A DNA stretch of 64,000 nucleotides, taken from positions 576,001-640,000 of the forward strand of contig OZ242011.1 in assembly GCA_965204755.1 (NCBI GenBank). The letters are read 5' to 3'. How positions within the stretch are numbered: the stretch's first letter is position 1; every line of letters begins with the position of its first letter. Under the pieces are notes generated by a model that had not been told where the DNA came from, ran no database searches, and saw only the letters and a program-made list of their open reading frames with translations. This stretch comes from Candidatus Marinacidobacterium sp. (GTDB taxonomy: Bacteria > Acidobacteriota > Vicinamibacteria > Marinacidobacterales > Marinacidobacteraceae). This document shows positions 1-10,546 of this stretch, in pieces. The translations under genes and the position numbers were made by a program.

Positions 1-697
1 CCTGAAGAACTGGGGCCACGACTTCGCCCCCCACGACCCGCACCACCGGTTCGACCGGTACGGGGCGATCCCGCCCCGGACGCGCGGCGACCTGGCGTTC
101 CTCCTCCACATGCTGGCGGTGACGAATCCCGGGGGAATGGTGGGCGTGGTGATGCCGCACGGCGTGCTCTTCCGGGGCGGCGCCGAAGGGAAGATCCGCC
201 GGGGCATCGTCGAGGACGACCGGTTCGAGGCGGTGATCGGGCTCGCGCCCAACCTGTTCTTCGGCGCCGGCATCCCGGTGGCGGTGCTGGTGCTGAACCG
301 CGCCAAACCGCCGGAGCGCCGGGGGAAGGTGCTGTTCGTGGACGCCGCGCAGCCGGAGTGCTTCCGCAAGGGCACGGCGCAGAACCATCTCGATCCGGAA
401 CATGTTTCGCGGATCGCGGAGGCGTACCACGCCTTCGAGGAAGTGGAGCGGTTCGCCCATGTGGCCGACCGCGACGAAATCGCCGCCAACGACTTCAACC
501 TGAACATCGCCAGGTATGTGGACACCTCCGAACCGCCGGAGGTGATGAGCGTCGAACGGGCGCTCGCCGAGTTGCGCGAAGCCGAACGCCGCCGCGAAGA
601 AGCCGCGGCGAAGATGCATGCGCTCCTCGCGGAAATGGGCTTCACCGCGCCGGACGACTCCTCCGAGTCCGGCAAGCGCACGCCCGACAACCGCTGA
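1..697 (+). CDS. hsdM: Type I R-M methyltransferase subunit M, C-terminal part (5' truncated by window)
   Basis: Frame open from base 2; GDLAFLLHM, VVMPHGVLFRGGAEGKIR, AVIGLAPNLFFGAGIP and NDFNLNIARYVD are typical HsdM motifs. Confidence 0.93.
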   Translation, partial: LKNWGHDFAPHDPHHRFDRYGAIPPRTRGDLAFLLHMLAVTNPGGMVGVVMPHGVLFRGGAEGKIRRGIVEDDRFEAVIGLAPNLFFGAGIPVAVLVLNRAKPPERRGKVLFVDAAQPECFRKGTAQNHLDPEHVSRIAEAYHAFEEVERFAHVADRDEIAANDFNLNIARYVDTSEPPEVMSVERALAELREAERRREEAAAKMHALLAEMGFTAPDDSSESGKRTPDNR

Positions 698-710
698 GGG
701 CCTCGCTGGA

Positions 711-2102
711 ATGGCCTTGCCCGCACCGCCTCCCGAACCACCCGGCTCGGGGACCGGCGTCTCGGGAAGCGGACGCCGCAGGTCGCCCAATTTCGGGGAC
801 GCAGCCGAACTTCTGGAGTTCTACGGGTGGCGTGAAAGCCGGGCGAACGGTCAGCGGATGTACCGGCATACCGTCGAGGCGGAAGAAGACGATCCCCGTC
901 CCGCGCCCGAACCGGCCAAGCGCCGGGAACCGACCACCGAGCAGCGACCTCGGCGCCGACCCGCGCTCGTCGGTCAGCGCGGAGCGCTCGACCGGGAACG
1001 CCGGGAGTCGAGGCGCGCCTTTCCTGTCGTCGTGAAGCGCGGCCGCCGTGAATTCGGCGCGTACGCCCCGGAAGTCCCGGGGTCGTTCGTCGTCGAACGC
1101 ACCCCCGCCGACGCCCGGCGACGGGTCGAGGAGGCGATCGCAACGCATCTCCGGTTGCTCGGCGAGATGGGGGACGAACTTCCCGAACCGGACCCCGAAG
1201 TCGCCCGCGCGCTGGCCCGCGTCACCGATCCGGATTCGAGGCTTCCGCGCGACCCGAATGTCGAGGTCGTCACGGTGGAGGTCGGCCCGGAGGACGCTCC
1301 GCCCGACGCGCCGAGTAGCCCGCCGTCAGACCCGACGACTCCTCGGGAACCTCGGCGCGAGACCTTCGTGGCGATCCTCGGGAAGACCGCCAGGAACTAC
1401 TCCGGGGAGGCGCCCGACCTCGGCGCCTGTGTCGCCGCCGGCGACACGATGGACGAGTTGCGGTCGAAACTGGCGCGAGCGATCTCGGCCCATGTCCAGG
1501 CCATGGTGGACGACGGCGACCCCCTGCCCGAGCGCCGCCTTACCCCGGAGGAAGCCTTGGCGCAGCGAAGCGGAGGGCGCGGCGGCGACTCGGCCGGTCG
1601 GTCTGACCCCGACGAGGAGAGGGAGGTCGCGGAACTCCTGACCGTCGAGGTGCTGCCGCCCCGCCCGCAGGCCTTGGCGCTGAACGCACTGTGGCGCCGA
1701 TCGTGCCGGAACGAGTCTTCCTTCGAGGCGGACTGCGTCATACCGGCGCCGCTCGCGGCCGGCGAGACCTGGAGCGGCGCTTACGCCGCGGACCTCCTCT
1801 ACGCGGACGACATCTGGTACGGCCGGATCGCCGAGTGGCAGTACGCCGTAGAGACGGGCGAGAGCCGCGAAGAACTCCGCCGGAACCTGCAGGCCGCGGT
1901 CACCCGCGCCCTCCTCGAGTCCGTCGCCAACGACGGGACGATCCCCCTGCCTCGTCGCACGGCAGAGTCGGCGCTGGCCCAACGCCTTCTCCGCCGGGCC
2001 GGCAGGGGGAACGACGAGATCCTCGACCGCGACGAGGCCGTCGAGATGATTCCGGTCCGGATCACGGCGCCGGAAGCCGCCGTCTCGCGTCGAGGCGAAT
2101 GA
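711..2102 (+). CDS. Protein with three tandem HicB-like domains and a degenerate HicA-like N-terminus
   Basis: ATG 711; HicB-like units FGAYAPEVPGS..EEAIATHL..GDELPEP, YSGEAPDLGACVAAGDT..DDGDPLP, WYGRIAEW..TGESREEL..DGTIPLP. Confidence 0.75.
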   Translation: MALPAPPPEPPGSGTGVSGSGRRRSPNFGDAAELLEFYGWRESRANGQRMYRHTVEAEEDDPRPAPEPAKRREPTTEQRPRRRPALVGQRGALDRERRESRRAFPVVVKRGRREFGAYAPEVPGSFVVERTPADARRRVEEAIATHLRLLGEMGDELPEPDPEVARALARVTDPDSRLPRDPNVEVVTVEVGPEDAPPDAPSSPPSDPTTPREPRRETFVAILGKTARNYSGEAPDLGACVAAGDTMDELRSKLARAISAHVQAMVDDGDPLPERRLTPEEALAQRSGGRGGDSAGRSDPDEEREVAELLTVEVLPPRPQALALNALWRRSCRNESSFEADCVIPAPLAAGETWSGAYAADLLYADDIWYGRIAEWQYAVETGESREELRRNLQAAVTRALLESVANDGTIPLPRRTAESALAQRLLRRAGRGNDEILDRDEAVEMIPVRITAPEAAVSRRGE

Positions 2103-3229
2103 CCGACGCGCCGCCTTTCGTTTCCGCGCCGGAGACGGGCCGAGCGTCCCGAGAGCGCAACTACCCGGTGATCGTCCGGCGCGGGGGCGGCCGGTATGGC
2201 GCGTACGCGCCGGAAGTGCCCGGTTCGTTCGTCACGGCCGCGACGGTCGAGGACGCCCGCCGCCTGGTGCGCGACGAGATCGCCTCGCGCCTCCGGCTGC
2301 TCCTCGAAATGTCCGAAGACGAAGTCCCGGAACCGGAAGCGGAGGTGCTGGACGCGCTGGCCGAAGCCACGAACCCGAACCTCGGCCACCCGGTGGACCC
2401 GAGCGTGCGCGTCCTGGTCGTCGAAGTGGGCCCGGAAGACGCGCCGCCCGATGCCCCCTCGGTTCCGCCGCGCGAACTCGCGGTCGCGAGAACCCATCGG
2501 CCTCGGCCGGAAACCTTCGCGGCCGTCTTCACCCGAGCGCCGGACGGGTATTCCGGCGAAGTCCCGGACCTGCCCGGCTGTCTCAGCATGGGCGACACGC
2601 TGGCGGACATGCGGCGCAACATGCGCGAGGCCATCCACCTCCATGTCCAGTCCTCGGTGGACGACCACGAGCCGGTCCCGCAGCGCCGCCGCTCCCCGGC
2701 GGAAGCGCTGGCTCACTACTACGAAGACGAGGACAACGATCCGGATAACCCGTACGAGACGGCCACCTCCGAACTCGTGACGGTACCCATCCTTCCGCCC
2801 CGCCCGCAAGCCCGTCTGCTGACCGCGATGTGGCGACGAGCCTGCCGCGACAGGGACGCTTTCGAGCGGGACTCCGCGGTATGGCATCCGATCGCGCCGG
2901 GCGCGTCGTGGAGCGGGACCTACGCCGCCGTCGTCCGTCCTCTCGACGATGTCCGGTGGGGCCACTTTCCGGATGTGGCTCGTTCCCTCGCCGCCGGTCC
3001 CACCCGCGCGGAACTCCGCCGGGAACTGCGGGCCGTCCTGGTCGAGCGTCTCTTCGAGATCTTGGCGGCGGAAGGCGCCATCCCCTTGCCCCGCCGGACG
3101 CCGGCGCTGGCGATGGCCGCGGACATCCTCCACAGCGCCGGACACGGCGGCCGGGTCTCGGAGCGGGAAGCCGCAACCGAGATGATCCCGGTGGAAATCA
3201 CGGCGCCCGGCGCCGGTGGCGCCAGTTGA
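2099..3229 (+). CDS. Protein with three tandem HicB-like domains
   Basis: ATGA overlap with upstream gene; middle unit YSGEVPDLPGCLSMGDTLADMRRNMREAIHLH is a canonical HicB N-terminal domain; paralogous to 711-2102 and 3520-4590. Confidence 0.8.
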   Translation: MTDAPPFVSAPETGRASRERNYPVIVRRGGGRYGAYAPEVPGSFVTAATVEDARRLVRDEIASRLRLLLEMSEDEVPEPEAEVLDALAEATNPNLGHPVDPSVRVLVVEVGPEDAPPDAPSVPPRELAVARTHRPRPETFAAVFTRAPDGYSGEVPDLPGCLSMGDTLADMRRNMREAIHLHVQSSVDDHEPVPQRRRSPAEALAHYYEDEDNDPDNPYETATSELVTVPILPPRPQARLLTAMWRRACRDRDAFERDSAVWHPIAPGASWSGTYAAVVRPLDDVRWGHFPDVARSLAAGPTRAELRRELRAVLVERLFEILAAEGAIPLPRRTPALAMAADILHSAGHGGRVSEREAATEMIPVEITAPGAGGAS

Positions 3230-3316
3230 CGCGCCCGAACCGAACAACGACCTTGCCCTCACAACGCTTCGCGCCCGTCCTCCTCCGGGACCGGCGCCTA
3301 CCGCGGGTGGGGGCGT

Positions 3317-3523
3317 ATGTCGAAAAAGGTCCGTGACATCGTCAAGATCTTGAAGAAACACGGCTGGAGGCTCGACTACATCGAGGGGAGCCACCACCAC
3401 TACACTCACCCGACGATCCCCGACAAGGTCTCGGTCCCCGGCACCCGCAACAAGGACTTGGGGGTGGGTCTCTGGCAACGCATCATGAAGCAGGCGCAGA
3501 TCCCGCGCAGCGAGTGGCCATGA
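3317..3523 (+). CDS. hicA: HicA family toxin (mRNA interferase)
   Basis: 68 aa basic protein, KVRDIVKILKKHGW..GSHHHYTHP..VSVPG..DLGVG..RIMKQA, catalytic GSH His intact. Confidence 0.92.
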   Translation: MSKKVRDIVKILKKHGWRLDYIEGSHHHYTHPTIPDKVSVPGTRNKDLGVGLWQRIMKQAQIPRSEWP

Positions 3524-4590
3524 AGCAGACCTTCGCCATCGTCGTCGAACGCGCCCCGAACGGCTACGGGGCGTACGCGCCGGACCTGCCGGCCTCCTTC
3601 GTCACCGCGGAGACTCTCGAAGGCGCCTTCCGCGGCGCGAGGGCGGCCCTGGCTTCCTATCTCCGCCTCTTCGCGGAGATGGGAGACCGGCTGCCGCAGC
3701 CGCGCCCGGAAACCGCGCCGGCGCTGGAACGCGCCAACCGAACGGCGGCGGGCAGCCCCGCCGACCCGGGCGTCCGCGTCCTGCTCGCGGAAATCGGGCC
3801 CGACGACGCGCCGCCGTCGCCGCGCTCCCTCCGGCCGCTGACGCCGCCCGCTTCGCCCCGCCGACGAGAGACCTTCGCGGTCGTGTTCGAGTCCGGCGAC
3901 AACGGCTTCGGCGCCTATTGCCCGGATCTTCCCGGCTGCGTCAGCATCGGGGACACGGACGGCGAAGCCCGCGAGACGATGCGCGCCGGACTCGCGGACT
4001 TCGTCCAGCGCCTGGTGGACGACGGCGAACCGGTCCCGACGAAGCGGCTGTCCGTCGAAGCGGCGCTGGCGGCCCACCACCGGGAATACGGAACCGCCGA
4101 CTCGCCTCCGGACGACGGGCGGGTTTTCGCCGAGCCGATCACCGTGGAAGTGCGGCCGCCCCGCCCCGGCGCCCGGCGACGGCGCGAACTGTGGCGCGAC
4201 GCGCACCGCCGGAGGATCGAGTTCGAGGAACGCGCCTCCCCGACCGCGCCGCTCGCCCCCGGCGCCTGTCGCTGCGACGCTTGGGCCGCCGTCTTCGAGA
4301 CGGCCGCCGACGGGGTGACCGCCCATGTCCCGGACCTGCCGGCCTGCCGCGCCGAGGGAGGAAGCCCGGAAGTCGCCCGCGCCCGCCTCCGCGACGCCAT
4401 CGCCGATCACCTGGAACGGCGGCGCGAGGCCGAGGGCGTGATACCCCTGCCCCGACGGACGCCGACCCGGGCGCTGGCTCACCACCACCGGGAGTGCGTG
4501 GAGTACGGACTCGAAGTCCCGGACCCCGACGCGACCGTCGAGTTGATTCCGGTCGAAGTCGCTGCCCCGTCCATCGCCTGCGCCAGTTGA
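3520..4590 (+). CDS. HicB-like antitoxin with three tandem HicB domains
   Basis: ATGA overlap with hicA; YGAYAPDLPAS, FGAYCPDLPGCVSIGDT, VTAHVPDLPACRAEG units. Confidence 0.85.
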   Translation: MKQTFAIVVERAPNGYGAYAPDLPASFVTAETLEGAFRGARAALASYLRLFAEMGDRLPQPRPETAPALERANRTAAGSPADPGVRVLLAEIGPDDAPPSPRSLRPLTPPASPRRRETFAVVFESGDNGFGAYCPDLPGCVSIGDTDGEARETMRAGLADFVQRLVDDGEPVPTKRLSVEAALAAHHREYGTADSPPDDGRVFAEPITVEVRPPRPGARRRRELWRDAHRRRIEFEERASPTAPLAPGACRCDAWAAVFETAADGVTAHVPDLPACRAEGGSPEVARARLRDAIADHLERRREAEGVIPLPRRTPTRALAHHHRECVEYGLEVPDPDATVELIPVEVAAPSIACAS

Positions 4591-5834
4591 CGCGGACACC
4601 GAACGCCCTGCCGGACGGCTGGGCCGTCGTTCCGCTGCAGGAAATCGCCGAAGTGGCGTTCAGCGGGGTGGACAAGAAGACCGTGGACGGAGAGGTCCCG
4701 GTCGCGCTCTGCAACTACACGGATGTCTTCTACAACCGCCGGATCCACGGTCGGCTGGACTTCATGTCCGCGACCGCGACCCCGGCGGAGATCGGGCGCT
4801 GGTCGCTCCGGAAGGGCGATGTCCTCTTCACGAAGGACTCCGAGACCCCGGACGAAATCGGCGTCCCGGCCTATGTCGAGGAAGACTTGCCCGGCGTCCT
4901 CTGCGGCTACCACCTGGGCCGGGCCCGGCCGCTCCCCGGTCGGGTGGACGGCGCGTTTCTCGCCGCGTCCCTGCGTACTTCCCGCGCCCGGCAACACTTC
5001 GCCCGCATCGCGAACGGCGTAACCCGCTTCGGCCTGACACTCGGCGCGACCCGCGGTTTCCCCGTCCCGCTGCCGCCCATGAGCGAACAGCGCCGCATCG
5101 CGACGATGCTCGACTCTGTTGATCGCACCATCAACGAGACCTCCGCCCACATGGGCGCCGTAGAGAGATTTCGCGAAGGGCTGCGCCACGGACTCCTGAC
5201 AACCCACGCCGCCTGCGACAAATGGCGTGTTCGCCCACTCCGAAGTGTCGCCTCCATCGGCGCAGGCGATCCCGCGCCCCAGGACCCTGGAGACTTCGAG
5301 GGAGGCAGTCGTCCCTTCGTGCGGACGGCGGATGTCGGTCGCGTTCGACGATCCGCGGCATTCCGCGGCTCGCGAGACCGTCTCACCGACGACACGGTTC
5401 GACGGCGGCGTATGCGCCTGTGGCCGGCGGGAACGATCCTCGTTCCGAAAAGCGGCGCATCCCTCACCCTCAACAATCGTGTGCGCCTCGCAGAGCCCGC
5501 CTACGCATCATCCCATCTCGCGACGGCCCGAGCCCGTCCCGGGACCGACGGCGCCTTCCTCTACCACGCACTCTGCCACCTGGATGCACGGCGCCTGATG
5601 GGCAATGCCGGCTATCCCTCGCTTAGTCTCGAAGACTTGGGATCCGCACCGGTGCCTGTTCCCGCACTTTCCGCACAGCGGTCCATCGCCAGAGCGCTCG
5701 GCCGCGTCGAACGAGCCATCACGGAAGTTGCGGGACTCGTGGCCTCGTTGGGTCGATTTCGGGAAGCCCTTGGGCACGACCTCTTGACCGCCGGCCGGTC
5801 TCGTGTCCAGAGAGAGGAGAGAAGATGCCGTTAG
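4587..5834 (+). CDS. hsdS: Type I R-M specificity subunit S
   Basis: TTG start overlapping upstream TGA; LPDGW start; two TRDs, each followed by a conserved PLPPMSEQRRIA or PVPALSAQRSIA helix; ends DLLTAGR. Confidence 0.9.
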   Translation: MTRTPNALPDGWAVVPLQEIAEVAFSGVDKKTVDGEVPVALCNYTDVFYNRRIHGRLDFMSATATPAEIGRWSLRKGDVLFTKDSETPDEIGVPAYVEEDLPGVLCGYHLGRARPLPGRVDGAFLAASLRTSRARQHFARIANGVTRFGLTLGATRGFPVPLPPMSEQRRIATMLDSVDRTINETSAHMGAVERFREGLRHGLLTTHAACDKWRVRPLRSVASIGAGDPAPQDPGDFEGGSRPFVRTADVGRVRRSAAFRGSRDRLTDDTVRRRRMRLWPAGTILVPKSGASLTLNNRVRLAEPAYASSHLATARARPGTDGAFLYHALCHLDARRLMGNAGYPSLSLEDLGSAPVPVPALSAQRSIARALGRVERAITEVAGLVASLGRFREALGHDLLTAGRSRVQREERRCR

Positions 5835-5969
5835 CGACACGACGCCCCTTCCCTTCCCGAGGGGAAGGAGCGAGAGCATCTTGTCGGTGACTTCCGAGGG
5901 CTATGCCATGGCCGATGGCGACAAGCGACAACAGCAGGGGGTCGAACACCACTGGGAGCGAGACCGACG

Positions 5970-8900
5970 ATGACACCGAGGGCGAGAGAACGAACGGTGG
6001 CCGAAAGGCCTGCGGAAGGGCTGCTCAGCGCGCTGGGCTGGCAGCAAGTAGAGGCTGCAGCGCTGGGCGCCGAACGCGGCGGCGATCGCGATGTGCTGCT
6101 CCGCGGGCGCCTTCGGGCTGCGCTGCTGCGGCTCAACGAGTGGATGGGGCAAGCGGAGGCCGAGCGGGTGGTCGGGCGGTTGGGGCGGGAGGAAGGGGCC
6201 GGGATCGCGGAGAACCGGCGGGTGCATGAACTGTTGATCTACGGGATGCCGTTCGACGCGGAGGGGCCCGGAGGGCGGCGGACGCGGACGGTGCGGTTCT
6301 TCGACTTCGAGCATCCGACCGGGGGGCGGAACGAGTTTCTCGTCGCCACGCAGTTCCGGGTGGCCGGGCCGAAGGACTCCGTGATCCCCGACCTGGTGCT
6401 GTTCGTGAACGGGATTCCGCTGGTGGTGATGGAGGCGAAGTCGCCGACGATCGGGCCCCGGTGGAAGACGGAAGCGGTGGAGCAACTGCTCCGGTACCAA
6501 GGGGCCGGGCGCTACCGGGGGAAGGGCGCGCCGGATCTCTTCCGCTACAACCTGCTGTCCGTGGCGCACTGCGGGACGAGGGCGGCGTATGGCGCGGTCG
6601 GAGCCGGGGAGGACGGGTATGCGGAGTGGAAGTCCGTGGCGCCGTTCACCGAAGACGAAGCGCGGGAGCGGTTCGGGGTGGAACCCGCGGGGCAGGCGCG
6701 GCTTATCGTCGGGCTGCTGTCGCCCGCCGCCGTGCTCGAAGTGCTGCGGGACTTCGTGCTCTTCGAGCCGGAGCGCGGCCGCCTCGTCAAGAAACTGCCG
6801 CGTTACCAGCAATACCGGGCCGTCGGGAAGGCGCTGGAGCGGATCCGGTCCGGGGGGCGACCGAAAGAGCGCGGCGGGGTGATCTGGCATACCCAGGGAT
6901 CGGGCAAGTCGCTCACCGCGTTCTGGCTGGCGACGAAACTGCGGCGCGATCCGGCGCTCGGGAACGCGACGATCCTGGTGGTCACCGACCGGCGGCAACT
7001 CGACCGGCAGATCGCGGAGACCTTCGACCGCTGCGGCTTCCCGGCCCCGAAGCCGGCGAAGAGCGGGAAACACCTGGCGGAGTTGCTGACCGAAGGGCGC
7101 GGGCGCACGGTGATGACGACGATCCAGAAGTTCGAGGAGGCGCTGCCCGCGGGGGAGCGGGCGACCGCCGCGCTCGACGCCTCGGACGAAGTGGTGGTCA
7201 TGGTGGACGAAGCGCACCGCACGCAGTACGGGACGCTCGGCGCGCTCCTTTCGCAGGCCCTGCCCCGCGCGGCGCTGATCGGGTTCACCGGGACTCCCAT
7301 CGACGACGGGTTCCGGCGCAGCACGATGGGGCGGTTCGGGCCGCTCATCGACCGGTACTCCATCGAGCAGGCGGTCGAGGACGGCGCGACGGTGGAGATC
7401 CGCTACGAAGCGCGGCTGCCGGAGTTGGCGGTCGCCGGGCCGAACACGCTCGACCGCATCTTCGACGCGATGTTCCGGGACGAACCGGAGGAAGTGCGGG
7501 AGGAGATCCGCCGGAAGTACGCCGGCAGGGAATCCGTCGCGGAGGCGAGTCAGCGGATCCGGACGATCGCGCTCGACATCGCGGACCACTTCGGGAAGCA
7601 CATCCGCCCGAACGGGTTCAAGGCGCAGGTCGTCGCGCCGAGCCGGAAGGCGGCGCTCCGGTACCGCGAATACCTGAACGACTGCGGGGTGAAGGCCTAC
7701 GCCGTCATCACGGTGGACCGGAGCGACGGGCCGGAGTTCGATGCGGCGCGGGACATTTCCGAAGAGGAGATCGTCTCCGCGTTCAAGAATCCCGAAGGGG
7801 AACCGGAAGTCCTCGTCGTCGTGGACAAACTCCTCACCGGTTTCGACGCGCCGGTGGAGCAGGCGCTCTACCTCGACCACCCGCTGCGCGAACACGCGCT
7901 GCTCCAGGCCGTCGCGCGGGTGAACCGCCGGTTCCGCCACGACTGGAACGGCGCGGCGACCGAGAAGACCTACGGCCTGGTGGTGGACTACTGCGGGGTT
8001 TCGGCGAACCTGGAACAGGCGCTGTCCGCGTTCTCGCCGGCCGATGTGCGCCGGGCGATGCTGCCGAACGACGAGGAAGACCCGGCCGCGGTCATCGAAG
8101 CCGCCGCGGTCCGCGCCGAGTCCCGCTTCGAGGGACGGGCGCTCGACGATCCGGTCGGCGCGGCGTTGGTCTTCGCCGGCGATTCCGGGTCGGCGGACGG
8201 GTTCCGCGCGGAATCGTTCGAGCGGTTCGAAGCGGACTGCCGCACCTTCGCGCGGTTGATGGACCGACTCCTGCCCGACCCGCGCGCGCTCGCGTACCGG
8301 GATCGCCTCGCGCGGCTCACCGCGATCCGGCAAGTCGTCCGGGCGCAATACCTGCGGGAGGACGCGGCGGCGAACCGGGCGGAGATCGGGGCGAAGGTGC
8401 GGCGGCTGCTCGACGAACACATCGGCGCCGAAGTGCGCGGGCTGATGGCGCCGGTCTCCATACTCGCCGGGGACTTCGAGGAGAAGATCGCGGCGCTGCC
8501 CCACGACGAGGCGCGGGCGTCGCTGATGGAGCACGCGATCCGGGCGGAGATCAACGAGCGCCTCGCGGAGAACCGCGCCTACTACGAGAAGTTGTCGGAG
8601 AAACTGGCCCGCATCATCCGCGAACTGCGGGAGCAGGTGATCGACGCCGCCGAAGCGGTGCGGCGGCTGCGGGAACTGGGCGGCGAAGTCCGGAGCGAAG
8701 CGGACGCGGCGCGGGCGAGCGGGCTGACGGCGTTTTCCTATCCGGTGTTCCAACTGCTGGAGCGGACGCCGCTGGAGTCCGGGCCGGGCCTGGTGACCGG
8801 CGAAGTCGCGCCGGCGCCGGGGCCGGACGAGCGGCGGAAGAGCGCCGCCGAAGGAATCGAAGCCGTCGTCGCGCGATACCAGCGGTTCGTGGACTGGCAG

Positions 8901-9035
8901 TCGAACGAGGAGGCGCTGCGGCGGATGCGCCGGGAGATCAAGCGGCTGCTGCGCCGCCACGGGTTGCCGGAGTTGCATCTCGACCGGGTGACGGTGCAGG
9001 TCGTGGAGGTCGCGCGGCGCCGGTCGGCGGGGTGA
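5970..9035 (+). CDS. hsdR: Type I restriction endonuclease subunit R
   Basis: PDLVLFVNGIPLVVMEAK nuclease motif, WHTQGSGKS Walker A, VDEAHR, GFTGTPI, LLTGFDAP, QAVARVNR. Confidence 0.96.
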   Translation: MTPRARERTVAERPAEGLLSALGWQQVEAAALGAERGGDRDVLLRGRLRAALLRLNEWMGQAEAERVVGRLGREEGAGIAENRRVHELLIYGMPFDAEGPGGRRTRTVRFFDFEHPTGGRNEFLVATQFRVAGPKDSVIPDLVLFVNGIPLVVMEAKSPTIGPRWKTEAVEQLLRYQGAGRYRGKGAPDLFRYNLLSVAHCGTRAAYGAVGAGEDGYAEWKSVAPFTEDEARERFGVEPAGQARLIVGLLSPAAVLEVLRDFVLFEPERGRLVKKLPRYQQYRAVGKALERIRSGGRPKERGGVIWHTQGSGKSLTAFWLATKLRRDPALGNATILVVTDRRQLDRQIAETFDRCGFPAPKPAKSGKHLAELLTEGRGRTVMTTIQKFEEALPAGERATAALDASDEVVVMVDEAHRTQYGTLGALLSQALPRAALIGFTGTPIDDGFRRSTMGRFGPLIDRYSIEQAVEDGATVEIRYEARLPELAVAGPNTLDRIFDAMFRDEPEEVREEIRRKYAGRESVAEASQRIRTIALDIADHFGKHIRPNGFKAQVVAPSRKAALRYREYLNDCGVKAYAVITVDRSDGPEFDAARDISEEEIVSAFKNPEGEPEVLVVVDKLLTGFDAPVEQALYLDHPLREHALLQAVARVNRRFRHDWNGAATEKTYGLVVDYCGVSANLEQALSAFSPADVRRAMLPNDEEDPAAVIEAAAVRAESRFEGRALDDPVGAALVFAGDSGSADGFRAESFERFEADCRTFARLMDRLLPDPRALAYRDRLARLTAIRQVVRAQYLREDAAANRAEIGAKVRRLLDEHIGAEVRGLMAPVSILAGDFEEKIAALPHDEARASLMEHAIRAEINERLAENRAYYEKLSEKLARIIRELREQVIDAAEAVRRLRELGGEVRSEADAARASGLTAFSYPVFQLLERTPLESGPGLVTGEVAPAPGPDERRKSAAEGIEAVVARYQRFVDWQSNEEALRRMRREIKRLLRRHGLPELHLDRVTVQVVEVARRRSAG

Positions 9036-9793
9036 GCGAGCGGGATCGGCTCCGCCTCGACGGCGCGGTCGTCGAGTACGAGATCCGGCGCAGCGGCCGC
9101 CGGCGGAAGACGGCGCGGATCGCGGTGGACGGGGGGCGGGTGGTGGTCACCGCGCCGGAGGCGATGCCGGTCGACGAGATCCGGGAGGTGGTGTGGCGGC
9201 GGCGGGCCTGGATCCGGCGGAAACGGGAGGCGCCCGCGCCGGAGGCGGCGCCCCCGAAGCGGTTCGTGAGCGGGGAGACGCTGCCCTACCTGGGGCGGAA
9301 TGTGCGGCTCGTCGTCGAGGACGGGGGGGCGGGGTCGGCGCCGGCGGACGGGGGGCGGCGGGCGCCGATCCGGTTCGACCATTGGCGGCTGCGGGTGGCC
9401 GCGCCGGCGGGGCTGGAAGCGGGCGAGCGGGCGGAGTTCGCGCGGGGCGCGGTGATCGCCTGGTTCCGGGAACGCGCCGCCGACCGGGTGGGGGCGAGCG
9501 TGGCGCGGTACCTGCCGCGGTTCGGGCGGACGGAGGCGCCGCCGGTGCTCATCCGCGACCAGCGGAAGCGCTGGGCGAGTTGCGCGCCGGGAGGGGCGCT
9601 GCGGTTCAACTGGCGGGTGGCGATGCTGCCGCCGGCGCTCCTCGACTATGTGGTGGCGCACGAACTCGCGCACCTGGCGCTCCCCGACCACTCGCCGGCG
9701 TTCTGGGCCCACCTGGCGGGCGCGATGCCGGACTGGCGCGAACGCCGGCGGCAACTGCGCGAGTTGGGGCCGTCGCTGCCGCTCGGGCCGTAG
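9032..9793 (+). CDS. M48/YgjP-like (DUF45) metallohydrolase, common type I R-M partner
   Basis: GTGA overlap with hsdR; FVSGETLPYLG, KRWASC, LRFNWR, DYVVAHELAHL..DHSPAFW. Confidence 0.88.
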   Translation: MSERDRLRLDGAVVEYEIRRSGRRRKTARIAVDGGRVVVTAPEAMPVDEIREVVWRRRAWIRRKREAPAPEAAPPKRFVSGETLPYLGRNVRLVVEDGGAGSAPADGGRRAPIRFDHWRLRVAAPAGLEAGERAEFARGAVIAWFRERAADRVGASVARYLPRFGRTEAPPVLIRDQRKRWASCAPGGALRFNWRVAMLPPALLDYVVAHELAHLALPDHSPAFWAHLAGAMPDWRERRRQLRELGPSLPLGP

Positions 9794-9811
9794 GGCCGCG
9801 AGTCCGCGGCC

Positions 9812-10024
9812 TGTCAACCGGCGCCGAAAATGTCCCACTTTCAAGCAACGAAAACGCCCCACCTCGGGGAGTGTCGAGAGACACCAACTCTTACGCCGTT
9901 GGGAGACACCGACTTTTGGGCGCCCGGAGGCGGCGGAGGGGAGGAGGGGAGGAGGGGTCCGGCGGGTCGTGTCAACGGGCCGCGAATAGTGGACAGAAAT
10001 GGGATCCGAAAAGTGGACACTTTT
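9812..10024 (+). mobile_element. Three orphan IS21-family-like terminal sequences in tandem (no transposase)
   Basis: TGTC starts at 9812, 9872 and 9970, each followed by two imperfect internal direct repeats. Confidence 0.55.
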
Positions 10025-10546
10025 CGTCCTCGGGTCGCGGGTCGGAGGGAAGGGCCGGGACGGGGCCTGGGGCGCCTTGGCGGTGGTGGCGCCCCGGGAT
10101 CCCGGCGCCCCTCCGGGAAGGGAAGGCCGAGGCGGGGTCCGGGGCGTCTCGGCGGAGCGTCCGGGCCGGTGGGCGCGACGGCCGGGGACGGAGGGAGCGG
10201 AGCGACCGGAGCGCCACGACCGCAGACGACGGGGGCGGTGACGGCGGGCGCGCAAGGCCGCGGCCCGCCGGGGGCGTGTCATGAGACCCGACTCCTGCGC
10301 ACCCGGCGGCGAAGAGCCCCGGCAGAGGGCGGCCGCGGGGCGCGAGGGGGATGACGGTTCCTGTCGCGGGGGCGCCCTACCCTCCTCGTCGTGGCGATTC
10401 ACGATGGTTCCGACGCCCCGGCGGGGGCGCTTCGGCGGGTTCCCGATCGCGGGCCCGATTGCGTTCCCGATCGCGAAGATCCGGCGGCGGCGCTCCCGGC
10501 CGAGGGCGCCGCGCGGCGGGGTCGGGGCGGCGGCCGGCGGTGGCGG

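Follow-up and report, generated by a model that had tools for sequence, protein, structure and literature searches.

HicAB systems pair HicA, an RNase with a double-stranded-RNA-binding fold, with the antitoxin HicB, and in canonical HicBs a C-terminal helix-turn-helix (HTH) or ribbon-helix-helix (RHH) domain dimerises the protein and represses the operon. Here we describe a relative found in a stretch of 64,000 nucleotides from Candidatus Marinacidobacterium sp. (contig OZ242011.1, positions 576,001 to 640,000 of the forward strand), called the window below and numbered from its first letter, in which one hicA gene and three genes for proteins of three fused HicB domains each lie between hsdM and hsdS of a type I restriction-modification (R-M) operon. 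The HicA family and the fold of the HicB N-terminal domain are shared with the canonical pairs of E. coli, Yersinia pestis (HicA3B3), Burkholderia pseudomallei and Streptococcus pneumoniae; the C-terminal HTH or RHH domain of those pairs, and of Gerdes classes 3/4, is missing here. The reading we favour, and consider somewhat better than an even bet, is that of a hicAB-type type II toxin-antitoxin cassette of undescribed architecture, tandemly amplified, partly toxin-depleted, and nested in and coupled to the hsdMS operon.

Gerdes (2024; PMC10865869) catalogued 14 HicA contexts, and in the accessible part of that paper a hicAB locus with three homologous HicB units is not among them. Class 1, as described there, is like the present locus in that hicA precedes and overlaps hicB and in that the antitoxin has a partial RNase H-type domain without HTH or RHH, but its HicB is a single domain of 67–97 residues, against 356–463 residues with three units and an extra helix here, which places the locus outside that class. 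Classes 7 and 8 share with it a multi-domain HicB without a recognisable DNA-binding domain (same part of PMC10865869). Both, however, have the gene order hicBA where ours is hicAB; class 7 HicBs are 216–233 residues long with two DUF1902 domains, so that the three-unit locus does not belong there either, while class 8 HicBs combine three unlike domains with the HicB fold in the last only, instead of three homologous units (PMC10865869, accessible part). How synthesis is regulated in the classes without a DNA-binding domain is posed in the same text as a question. Two-domain tandem HicBs likewise repeat PF15919 in one chain, but have two units instead of three, and their sequences are unrelated beyond the domain.

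Accessory cassettes within hsd clusters are also on record, namely prrC in EcoprrI (PMC12707154) and tgvAB in Vibrio cholerae VPI-2 (PMC12409362). As far as the accessible parts of these two papers go, PrrC is an anticodon nuclease that the R-M enzyme itself keeps masked and TgvAB a GmrSD-like type IV enzyme, whereas the present cassette is a toxin-antitoxin pair with its own antitoxin. What the cassette shares with PrrC is a place within a type I R-M locus, in each of two species between hsdM and hsdS; what it lacks is an anticodon nuclease with an NTPase-type regulatory domain, the cassette proteins being of HicA or HicB type only. The accessible text of Makarova et al. (2009; PMC2701414) contains no statement on toxin-antitoxin genes inside hsd operons. 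The hicAB hot spots of ANME-1 archaea resemble the cassette in that hicB outnumbers hicA and strains differ by structural variants, and a methylase link (written “hdsM”) and cross-protection by non-cognate HicBs are reported for them, but their HicBs are apparently single-domain archaeal proteins and are not described between hsdM and hsdS in the accessible part of that paper (PMC13385816). No description of a triple-HicB antitoxin was found in literature searches, which for Gerdes (2024) and the ANME-1 study covered the article text and not the supplements, and no PADLOC or NCBIfam model matches the cassette proteins. What is new is the triple-HicB architecture together with the leader described below; nesting in type I loci and array behaviour are already known.

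The features of the operon, all on the plus strand, are as follows.

2–697 (stop codon 695–697), plus strand: 3' part of hsdM, type I methyltransferase (N6_Mtase PF02384, E 2.5e-49; PADLOC MTase_I, E 1.6e-139)
709–790, plus strand: decayed copy of the hicA leader, which holds the ORF1 ATG (711) and aligns with four intact leaders
711–2102, plus strand: open reading frame ORF1, a beta-type triple-HicB protein fused to a dead-hicA extension (463 residues)
786–869, plus strand: hicA remnant in frame with ORF1, first helix and strand retained, Gly-Ser-His gone
2099–3229, plus strand: ORF2, a beta-type triple-HicB protein without a toxin gene of its own (376 residues)
3250–3316, plus strand: conserved leader hairpin, its 3' arm being the purine-rich ribosome-binding stretch upstream of the hicA ATG
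3317–3523, plus strand: hicA, the sole intact HicA toxin gene in the genome (68 residues; PF07927, E 9.4e-19)
3520–4590, plus strand: ORF3, an alpha-type triple-HicB protein and presumed cognate antitoxin (356 residues from the ATG)
4587–5834, plus strand: hsdS, specificity subunit, TTG start (Methylase_S PF01420 in two stretches, E 7.8e-17; PADLOC Specificity_I, E 5.4e-47)
5970–9035, plus strand: hsdR, restriction subunit (HSDR_N, SWI2_SNF2, T1R_D3-like and T1RH-like_C; PADLOC REase_I, E 6.6e-130)

The start of ORF3 was taken as the ATG at 3520, the program-made list of open reading frames beginning it at a GTG at 3514.

The toxin is a clear member of its family. It scores 67.7 bits against PF07927 (cut-off 27 bits), keeps the Gly-Ser-His stretch (G24-S25-H26) that is invariant in all five aligned HicAs and whose histidine we take to be catalytic, and its profile finds the solved HicA chains 6g26_E (E 8e-14) and 4c26_A (E ~1e-13). 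In the 3.98-Mb single-contig genome this hicA is the only match to PF07927, and all six matches to PF15919 fall inside the cassette. An earlier note on this stretch, made from the letters, had described a single intact hicA in the cassette, and the gene has now turned out to be the only one genome-wide.

The three antitoxin-like proteins are 40–49% identical to one another over their whole length. An AlphaFold2 model of ORF3, made from 28 family members, has a predicted local distance difference test (pLDDT) score of 89.5 and a predicted template modelling (pTM) score of 0.80, and contains three units (residues 5–94, 117–213 and 252–350), each running strand-strand-strand-helix-helix-strand; beyond them there are one extra helix at 218–241 and an 8-residue tail after unit 3. 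ORF1 gives a confident model of the same three-unit topology. When the family alignment was sliced into its units (D1–D3), profile-profile comparison related every pair, at 98.9% (E 1.9e-17) for D1–D2, 97.1% (E 7.4e-11) for D1–D3 and 99.5% (E 7.1e-23) for D2–D3. The top 19 rows listed by Foldseek for the ORF3 model are all HicB or HicB-like chains, and a second structural aligner gave strong HicB matches on unit 2: 6g1n_C (Z 10.8, root-mean-square deviation 2.3, 89 residues), 5yrz_C (Z 10.6), 4p78_A (Z 9.1), 6hpb_B (Z 8.7) and also 6g26, within the range Z 8.7–10.8. In this search with the whole of ORF3, units 1 and 3 reached only Z ~4 (the putative antitoxin 3k6q and double-stranded-RNA-binding-type domains), so that their HicB identity rests on profile comparison. 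A profile search of the PDB sequences, for its part, paired unit 1 with TTHA1756 (E 0.002), unit 3 with TTHA0281 (E 0.0045), and unit 2 with HicB3 and the B. pseudomallei HicB (E 2e-4 to 3e-4).

The Pfam scores are graded in the same way along the chain. Against a PF15919 cut-off of 27 bits, D2 passes in all three proteins (32.8–45.3 bits), D1 in one of the three (22.6–28.0) and D3 in none (at most 19), while whole triple-HicB proteins score 54–75 bits; the families matched are PF15919/PF21748 (HicB/UPF0150), and not DUF1902. The N-terminal, partial RNase H-like domain of HicB antitoxins is thus recognised by fold in unit 2 and by profile homology in units 1 and 3. No HTH or RHH Pfam family was matched in the three proteins at E up to 0.1, and unit by unit, at E up to 1, there was a single weak HTH_15 line (E 0.11) inside unit 2; with no such match, and with the model ending 8 residues past unit 3, the classical DNA-binding domain of HicB is absent. 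In these respects the earlier note had read the proteins well: three HicB N-terminal-type domains in each are supported by model topology and profile comparison, the HicB fold of domains 1 and 3, on which it had staked its reading, held by model topology and profile homology, and the absence of an HTH or RHH domain is confirmed by the Pfam scans and the ORF3 model. Its three conserved “linkers” fared less evenly, since VEVGPEDAPP and VEV.PPRP each comprise the closing strand of a unit and the proline-rich linker after it, while IPLPRRT lies inside unit 3, between its two helices.

Two elements of these proteins lie outside the strands and helices of the units. The helix at 218–241 of ORF3 (window 4171–4242), between units 2 and 3, is strongly basic, conserved, and the sole non-HicB element; binding of nucleic acid, for instance the leader, is a possible role for it, as is shielding of the unit 3 sheet. 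At the C-terminus, the tail AP-x-[IV]-ACAS (window 4564–4590 in ORF3) is present in 32 of the 46 family clusters (90% identity) tabulated by C-terminus, and is missing in all five dead-hicA fusions and in P0170, the representative of the ORF2 cluster. Conservation of the DNA at the 3' ends of most modules extends past the stop codon by about 15 nt, which fits amplification of a unit made of leader, hicA, hicB and a short tail. The tail or its DNA could be a coupling site or, alternatively, a degradation tag, and we would speculate that it is a degradation signal required by the toxin-paired copies alone.

The genes of the cassette are tightly joined to one another and to the operon. Read directly, the junction letters are ATGA at 2099–2102 (ORF1/ORF2), ATGA at 3520–3523 (hicA/ORF3) and TTGA at 4587–4590 (ORF3/hsdS), exactly where the earlier note had placed stop/start overlaps. 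Toxin and antitoxin genes are adjacent, co-oriented and overlapping, as is the linkage in HicAB pairs; the same overlap of hicA stop and antitoxin start recurs in three modules of a congener (G001), and a TTGA or GTGA stop/start coupling to hsdS is found in both species. In simple scans of window 1–6200 there was neither a sigma-70-like promoter nor a plus-strand terminator. A complete hsdM, with HsdM_N and N6_Mtase, was read on the upstream flank (L018), so that HsdM, HsdS and HsdR are all present and full-length, with full domain sets and strong PADLOC type I matches. The placement that the earlier note had given, of three paralogues of 356–463 residues between hsdM (ending at 697) and hsdS (starting at 4587), and of the cassette inside a type I R-M operon with intact-looking hsdM, hsdS and hsdR, is accordingly correct. 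Long minus-strand open reading frames across the cassette are treated as high-G+C artefacts.

A leader of about 67 nt precedes each of the four intact hicA genes (one in the window, three in the congener). It is 70–97% identical between modules, compared with 59–71% for the hicA coding DNA, and is the more conserved of the two in five of the six module pairs. All four leaders form one common hairpin, with a minimum free energy of -35.8 to -37.0 kcal/mol and z of -2.9 to -4.7, none or one of 200 shuffles being equally stable; the values for the window leader (3250–3316) are -37 kcal/mol and -2.94. The consensus fold has 20 pairs, in which the arm GCCCUCAC pairs with the purine-rich stretch directly before the AUG, and 96.3% of the cells in the pair counts are paired, against 44–56% with slid partners. 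The decayed copy at 709–790 in ORF1 has lost the hairpin (z -0.45 against shuffles). Action of the leader as an RNA hairpin is suggested by these properties. No Rfam family was matched in window 1–10000, leader included, and the eight matches to the leader DNA pattern in JGI metagenomes are ascribed to chance because none of the eight has HicA or a triple HicB nearby.

The disproportion between one toxin and nine HicB domains, which gave the earlier note its heading, is right as a count, but it came about mainly through the decay of toxins in a tandem array. ORF1 opens with ~95 residues that consist of the decayed hicA leader and a hicA remnant, the latter 37% identical over 30 residues to HicA-2 of the congener (tblastn, 6-kb search, E 2.4e-5). 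Third-codon G+C is 0.74 in this extension against 0.85 in the body of ORF1, with weaker codon periodicity in the extension, which is predicted to be disordered (pLDDT below 50 at residues 1–86 of the model). Docking of the remnant on the HicB body of ORF1 was considered and is without support at that pLDDT. The dead-hicA fusion is also present in the ORF1 relatives P0189 (461 residues), P0185, P0180 and P0183, the last three of which start at the former hicA start codon, and P0007, of the alpha lineage, has a separate HicA-like N-terminal fusion. Judged from the ORF1 remnant, the fusions in its relatives and P0007, toxin loss is a recurring event.

Strain variation indicates which parts of the array are constant. 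Logan contigs of four sequencing runs (X2, X4, X5 and X7) were aligned on window 1–6000, and in two of the four, by one contig each, a short form appears in which hsdM is followed by leader-hicA-ORF3 without ORF1 and ORF2: a contig of X4 (depth 344) joins 697 to 3248, and one of X7 (depth 27.3) joins 695 to 3249. The depth of X4 is 434–537 over 1–600 and 390–586 over 3601–4600, compared with 6.6–76 over 801–3200; the same run also holds a 2,951-nt contig identical to the window at 668–3618, with a depth of 6.6. X5 and X2 carry the window form, and X2 may be the sample from which the window came. The depth profile of X4 and the layout of the congener, where leader-hicA directly follows hsdM, agree with the short-form joints, and together with the contigs themselves they define a core of hsdM, leader-hicA, an alpha-type triple HicB and hsdS, to which the beta-type toxin-less copies are accessory. 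Sequencing runs holding the stretch amount to 19 rows from seven studies, labelled as sponge or marine metagenomes or with coded organism names, and sponge metagenomes are reported, in the accessible part of that study, to be enriched in hicAB and hsdMRS (PMC9531527). Within ORF3, at window 3809–4177, contigs of X4, X5 and X7 show a 17-letter replacement joint (4177/3809) and loose ends at 3829 and 4155, suggestive of a unit-2 allele in the population that has diverged or been rearranged; a paralogue in another organism could also be the source.

The triple form is rare. Index-based searches returned 20 clusters with ORF3 and 36 with ORF2, and the family clusters are all metagenome-derived bar one NCBI record. 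When 1.84 billion representatives were searched with a hidden Markov model and without an index, 4,425 proteins reached E ≤ 0.001, and only three of them cover the whole triple profile (E ≤ 1e-30); the matches that follow are proteins of at most 258 residues with one or two matched stretches. Two PF15919 stretches were seen in nine of ten scanned two-stretch proteins (147–237 residues), so that two-domain HicBs do occur and it is the triple form that is the rarity. Triple-HicB homologues, a search for which the earlier note had proposed, therefore exist but are few: three full-length clusters in 1.84 billion, and 46 at 90% identity. Among 61 genomes (the source and 60 relatives) 28 have some match, that of G036 being one weak single-domain match only, and full-length proteins are confined to the source (three copies) and the congener (five copies). 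A scan of 185,579 species genomes gave the congener and, besides, a single hicAB locus of the ordinary small kind. In JGI metagenomes the protein profile had 413 pattern matches with no relative among them, none of 56 pattern matches on viral contigs was confirmed as one, and the plasmid and phage collections held no family relative.

In the congener the order is hsdM, leader-hicA1, B1, B2, leader-hicA2, B3, leader-hicA3, B4, B5, hsdS, a DUF3644 gene and hsdR. By tblastn, HsdM is 86%, HsdR 74% and an upstream DUF3060-like protein 53% identical between the two loci; because the loci are syntenic, the linkage to hsd counts as one evolutionary event. A maximum-likelihood tree separates an alpha clade (ORF3, B1 and the long-branched B5) from a beta clade (ORF1, ORF2 and B2–B4), each with 100/100 support and each present in both genomes; B5 together with P0022 makes up a third cluster at 50% identity. 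The DUF3644 gene between hsdS and hsdR (L015 16069–17007; PADLOC PDC-S19, E 2.1e-70) is a second accessory gene nested in the congener operon, and has no counterpart at that position in the window. The two HsdS proteins differ in their own way: the second target-recognition half of the window protein (residues 211–403) has its counterpart, at 67% identity, in the first half of the congener HsdS (L015 14847–16064), while the first halves are 29% identical, which suggests that recognition domains have been shuffled between the two species.

On the reading we favour, the core unit at 3250–4590 would consist of the leader, hicA, and a single-chain antitoxin of three fused HicB N-terminal domains. 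We infer that HicA is toxic and is bound by ORF3, and that the antitoxin is labile and its loss responsive to a trigger. The triple HicB would bind and neutralise HicA, most likely through its most canonical, middle domain (unit 2), and units 1 and 3 may stand in for the oligomerisation that small HicBs or DNA-binding domains usually provide. With no DNA-binding domain in the antitoxin, restraint of the toxin would instead come after transcription: the leader hairpin would occlude the ribosome-binding site of hicA and limit its translation, and the antitoxin, then hsdS, would be translated by stop/start coupling. ORF1, the dead-hicA fusion, and ORF2 would be toxin-less units of the array, dispensable in some strains, which could act as spare antitoxin since in another lineage HicA was neutralised in experiments by HicB homologues that are not its cognate partners (PMC13385816, accessible part). 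Were phage shut-off or loss of the locus to halt transcription or translation of the operon, the antitoxin would be depleted and HicA would cleave RNA and arrest growth, so that the cassette might back up or stabilise the restriction locus by abortive infection or locus addiction.

Several points weigh against this reading. Covariation in the leader is weak, with a compensatory change in 2 of the 20 pairs and the same in 51 of 500 shuffles, and the leader could be a DNA operator instead. The choice of the HicA-binding domain is a guess. The short-form joints are borderline, with 30–32 letters on the shorter side at 85% likeness. Furthermore, ORF1 and ORF2 are not obviously junk, since ORF2 has full-length relatives at 95%, 81% and 64% identity, ORF1 is 91% identical to P0189, third-codon G+C in both is coding-like (0.84–0.85), and the triple-unit model of ORF1 is confident; they may have a role beyond a simple toxin-antitoxin pair. 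Mosaics at the level of single units, finally, suggest diversification: from unit 1 to unit 3, identity to ORF2 is 99%, 97% and 54% for P0171, whose unit 3 is 78% identical to P0016, and identity to ORF1 is 72%, 97% and 99% for P0185, whose unit 1 is 96% identical to P0180. Gene conversion among the tandem copies may lie behind these mosaics, or else selection for diversity.

Each of the other explanations accounts for some of these observations, and each meets evidence that does not suit it. We think it unlikely that the cassette stems from a mobile hicAB array which inserted into the operon and is now in decay, of no present benefit to the host beyond its own retention and coupled to hsdS as a by-product of the insertion site. 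The recurrent loss of toxin, the copy number and order that vary between the two species and between strains, and the disordered ORF1 extension with its low third-position G+C and weaker codon periodicity would all be expected of such a relic; the hicA-ORF3 core is nevertheless intact, conservation of the leader exceeds that of coding DNA, each species has kept both an alpha and a beta lineage, the base composition of the cassette is host-like, and the flanks that were examined showed neither a transposase nor an integrase. Less probable again is that ORF1 and ORF2 are retained, independently of restriction, to neutralise the HicA toxins of phages, plasmids and mobile elements as a form of anti-addiction. 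One HicA faces nine HicB units with no other HicA in the genome to cover, the orphans are conserved at full length, and there is the cross-neutralisation by non-cognate HicBs just cited (PMC13385816, accessible part), but both orphans are skipped by contigs in two of the four runs, with the short form far deeper in one, and are in this sense dispensable; the phage, plasmid and viral-contig collections offer no family relative as a source of targets, and the orphans descend from modules that once had a toxin, which decayed in situ.

Restriction itself enters the two remaining proposals. In the one to which we give the least credence, the triple HicBs, alone or with Hsd subunits, hold HicA latent in the manner of PrrC and release it when a protein of the Ocr or ArdA type disables the type I enzyme, their diversified domains serving as sensors. 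The position inside the operon with coupling to hsdS in two species, the precedent of PrrC (PMC12707154, accessible part), the full-length ORF1 and ORF2 of relatives and the unit-level mosaics would suit it, although gene conversion between tandem paralogues would produce mosaics equally. Against it stand the lack of any domain other than HicB units that might contact Hsd or phage proteins, the single evolutionary event behind the hsd linkage in the syntenic loci, the lack of a PADLOC or NCBIfam model match, and the ordinary hicAB loci of relatives, none of 11 of which has an hsd gene nearby (mostly in 1.5-kb flanks). A bolder proposal, to our minds about as improbable as the neutralisation of foreign toxins, sees the triple HicBs as diversifying single-chain sensors wired into the hsdMS operon, whose domains are titrated by phage products or by failure of the restriction complex, giving a restriction-coupled abortive-infection switch with modular, recombining triggers and a toxin translation threshold set by the leader hairpin. 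The earlier note had likewise cast the HicB domains as sensors of R-M inhibition or as decoys, and nothing indicates either; of the undescribed defence module it had put forward, the architecture is real, rare and absent from the accessible part of the 14-class catalogue (PMC10865869), and the defence role is a candidate one.

The surroundings of the operon hold some further genes and features. A gene for a YgjP-like zinc metallopeptidase (9032–9793, plus strand; PF01863, E 2.8e-51) starts 4 nt before the end of hsdR. Between 9000 and 11500, G+C is 0.78–0.79 in three of five 500-base windows and 0.71–0.73 in the other two, and a 500-residue open frame at 10355–11854 matches nothing in Pfam, NCBIfam or PADLOC. 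A 528-residue protein (L018 645–2228), encoded some 10 kb before the window and upstream of the hsd operon, has AAA ATPase and PD-(D/E)XK nuclease (PDDEXK_9) matches and is without a PADLOC match.

For the HicAB family, the cassette adds an architecture that is missing from the accessible part of the 14-class catalogue (PMC10865869), a single-chain antitoxin of three HicB domains. It also provides a candidate answer to how HicBs without a DNA-binding domain are regulated, in the form of a leader hairpin over the ribosome-binding site of the toxin together with translational coupling. The loci make up a natural series, from one module (the short form of two metagenome runs), through one module with two toxin-less copies (the source genome), to three modules with two toxin-less copies (the congener), from which one might learn how an antitoxin survives the loss of its toxin and whether a spare antitoxin is of use. 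If the wiring of the operon is functional, the cassette would join PrrC as the second kind of RNase back-up to be housed in a type I restriction locus.

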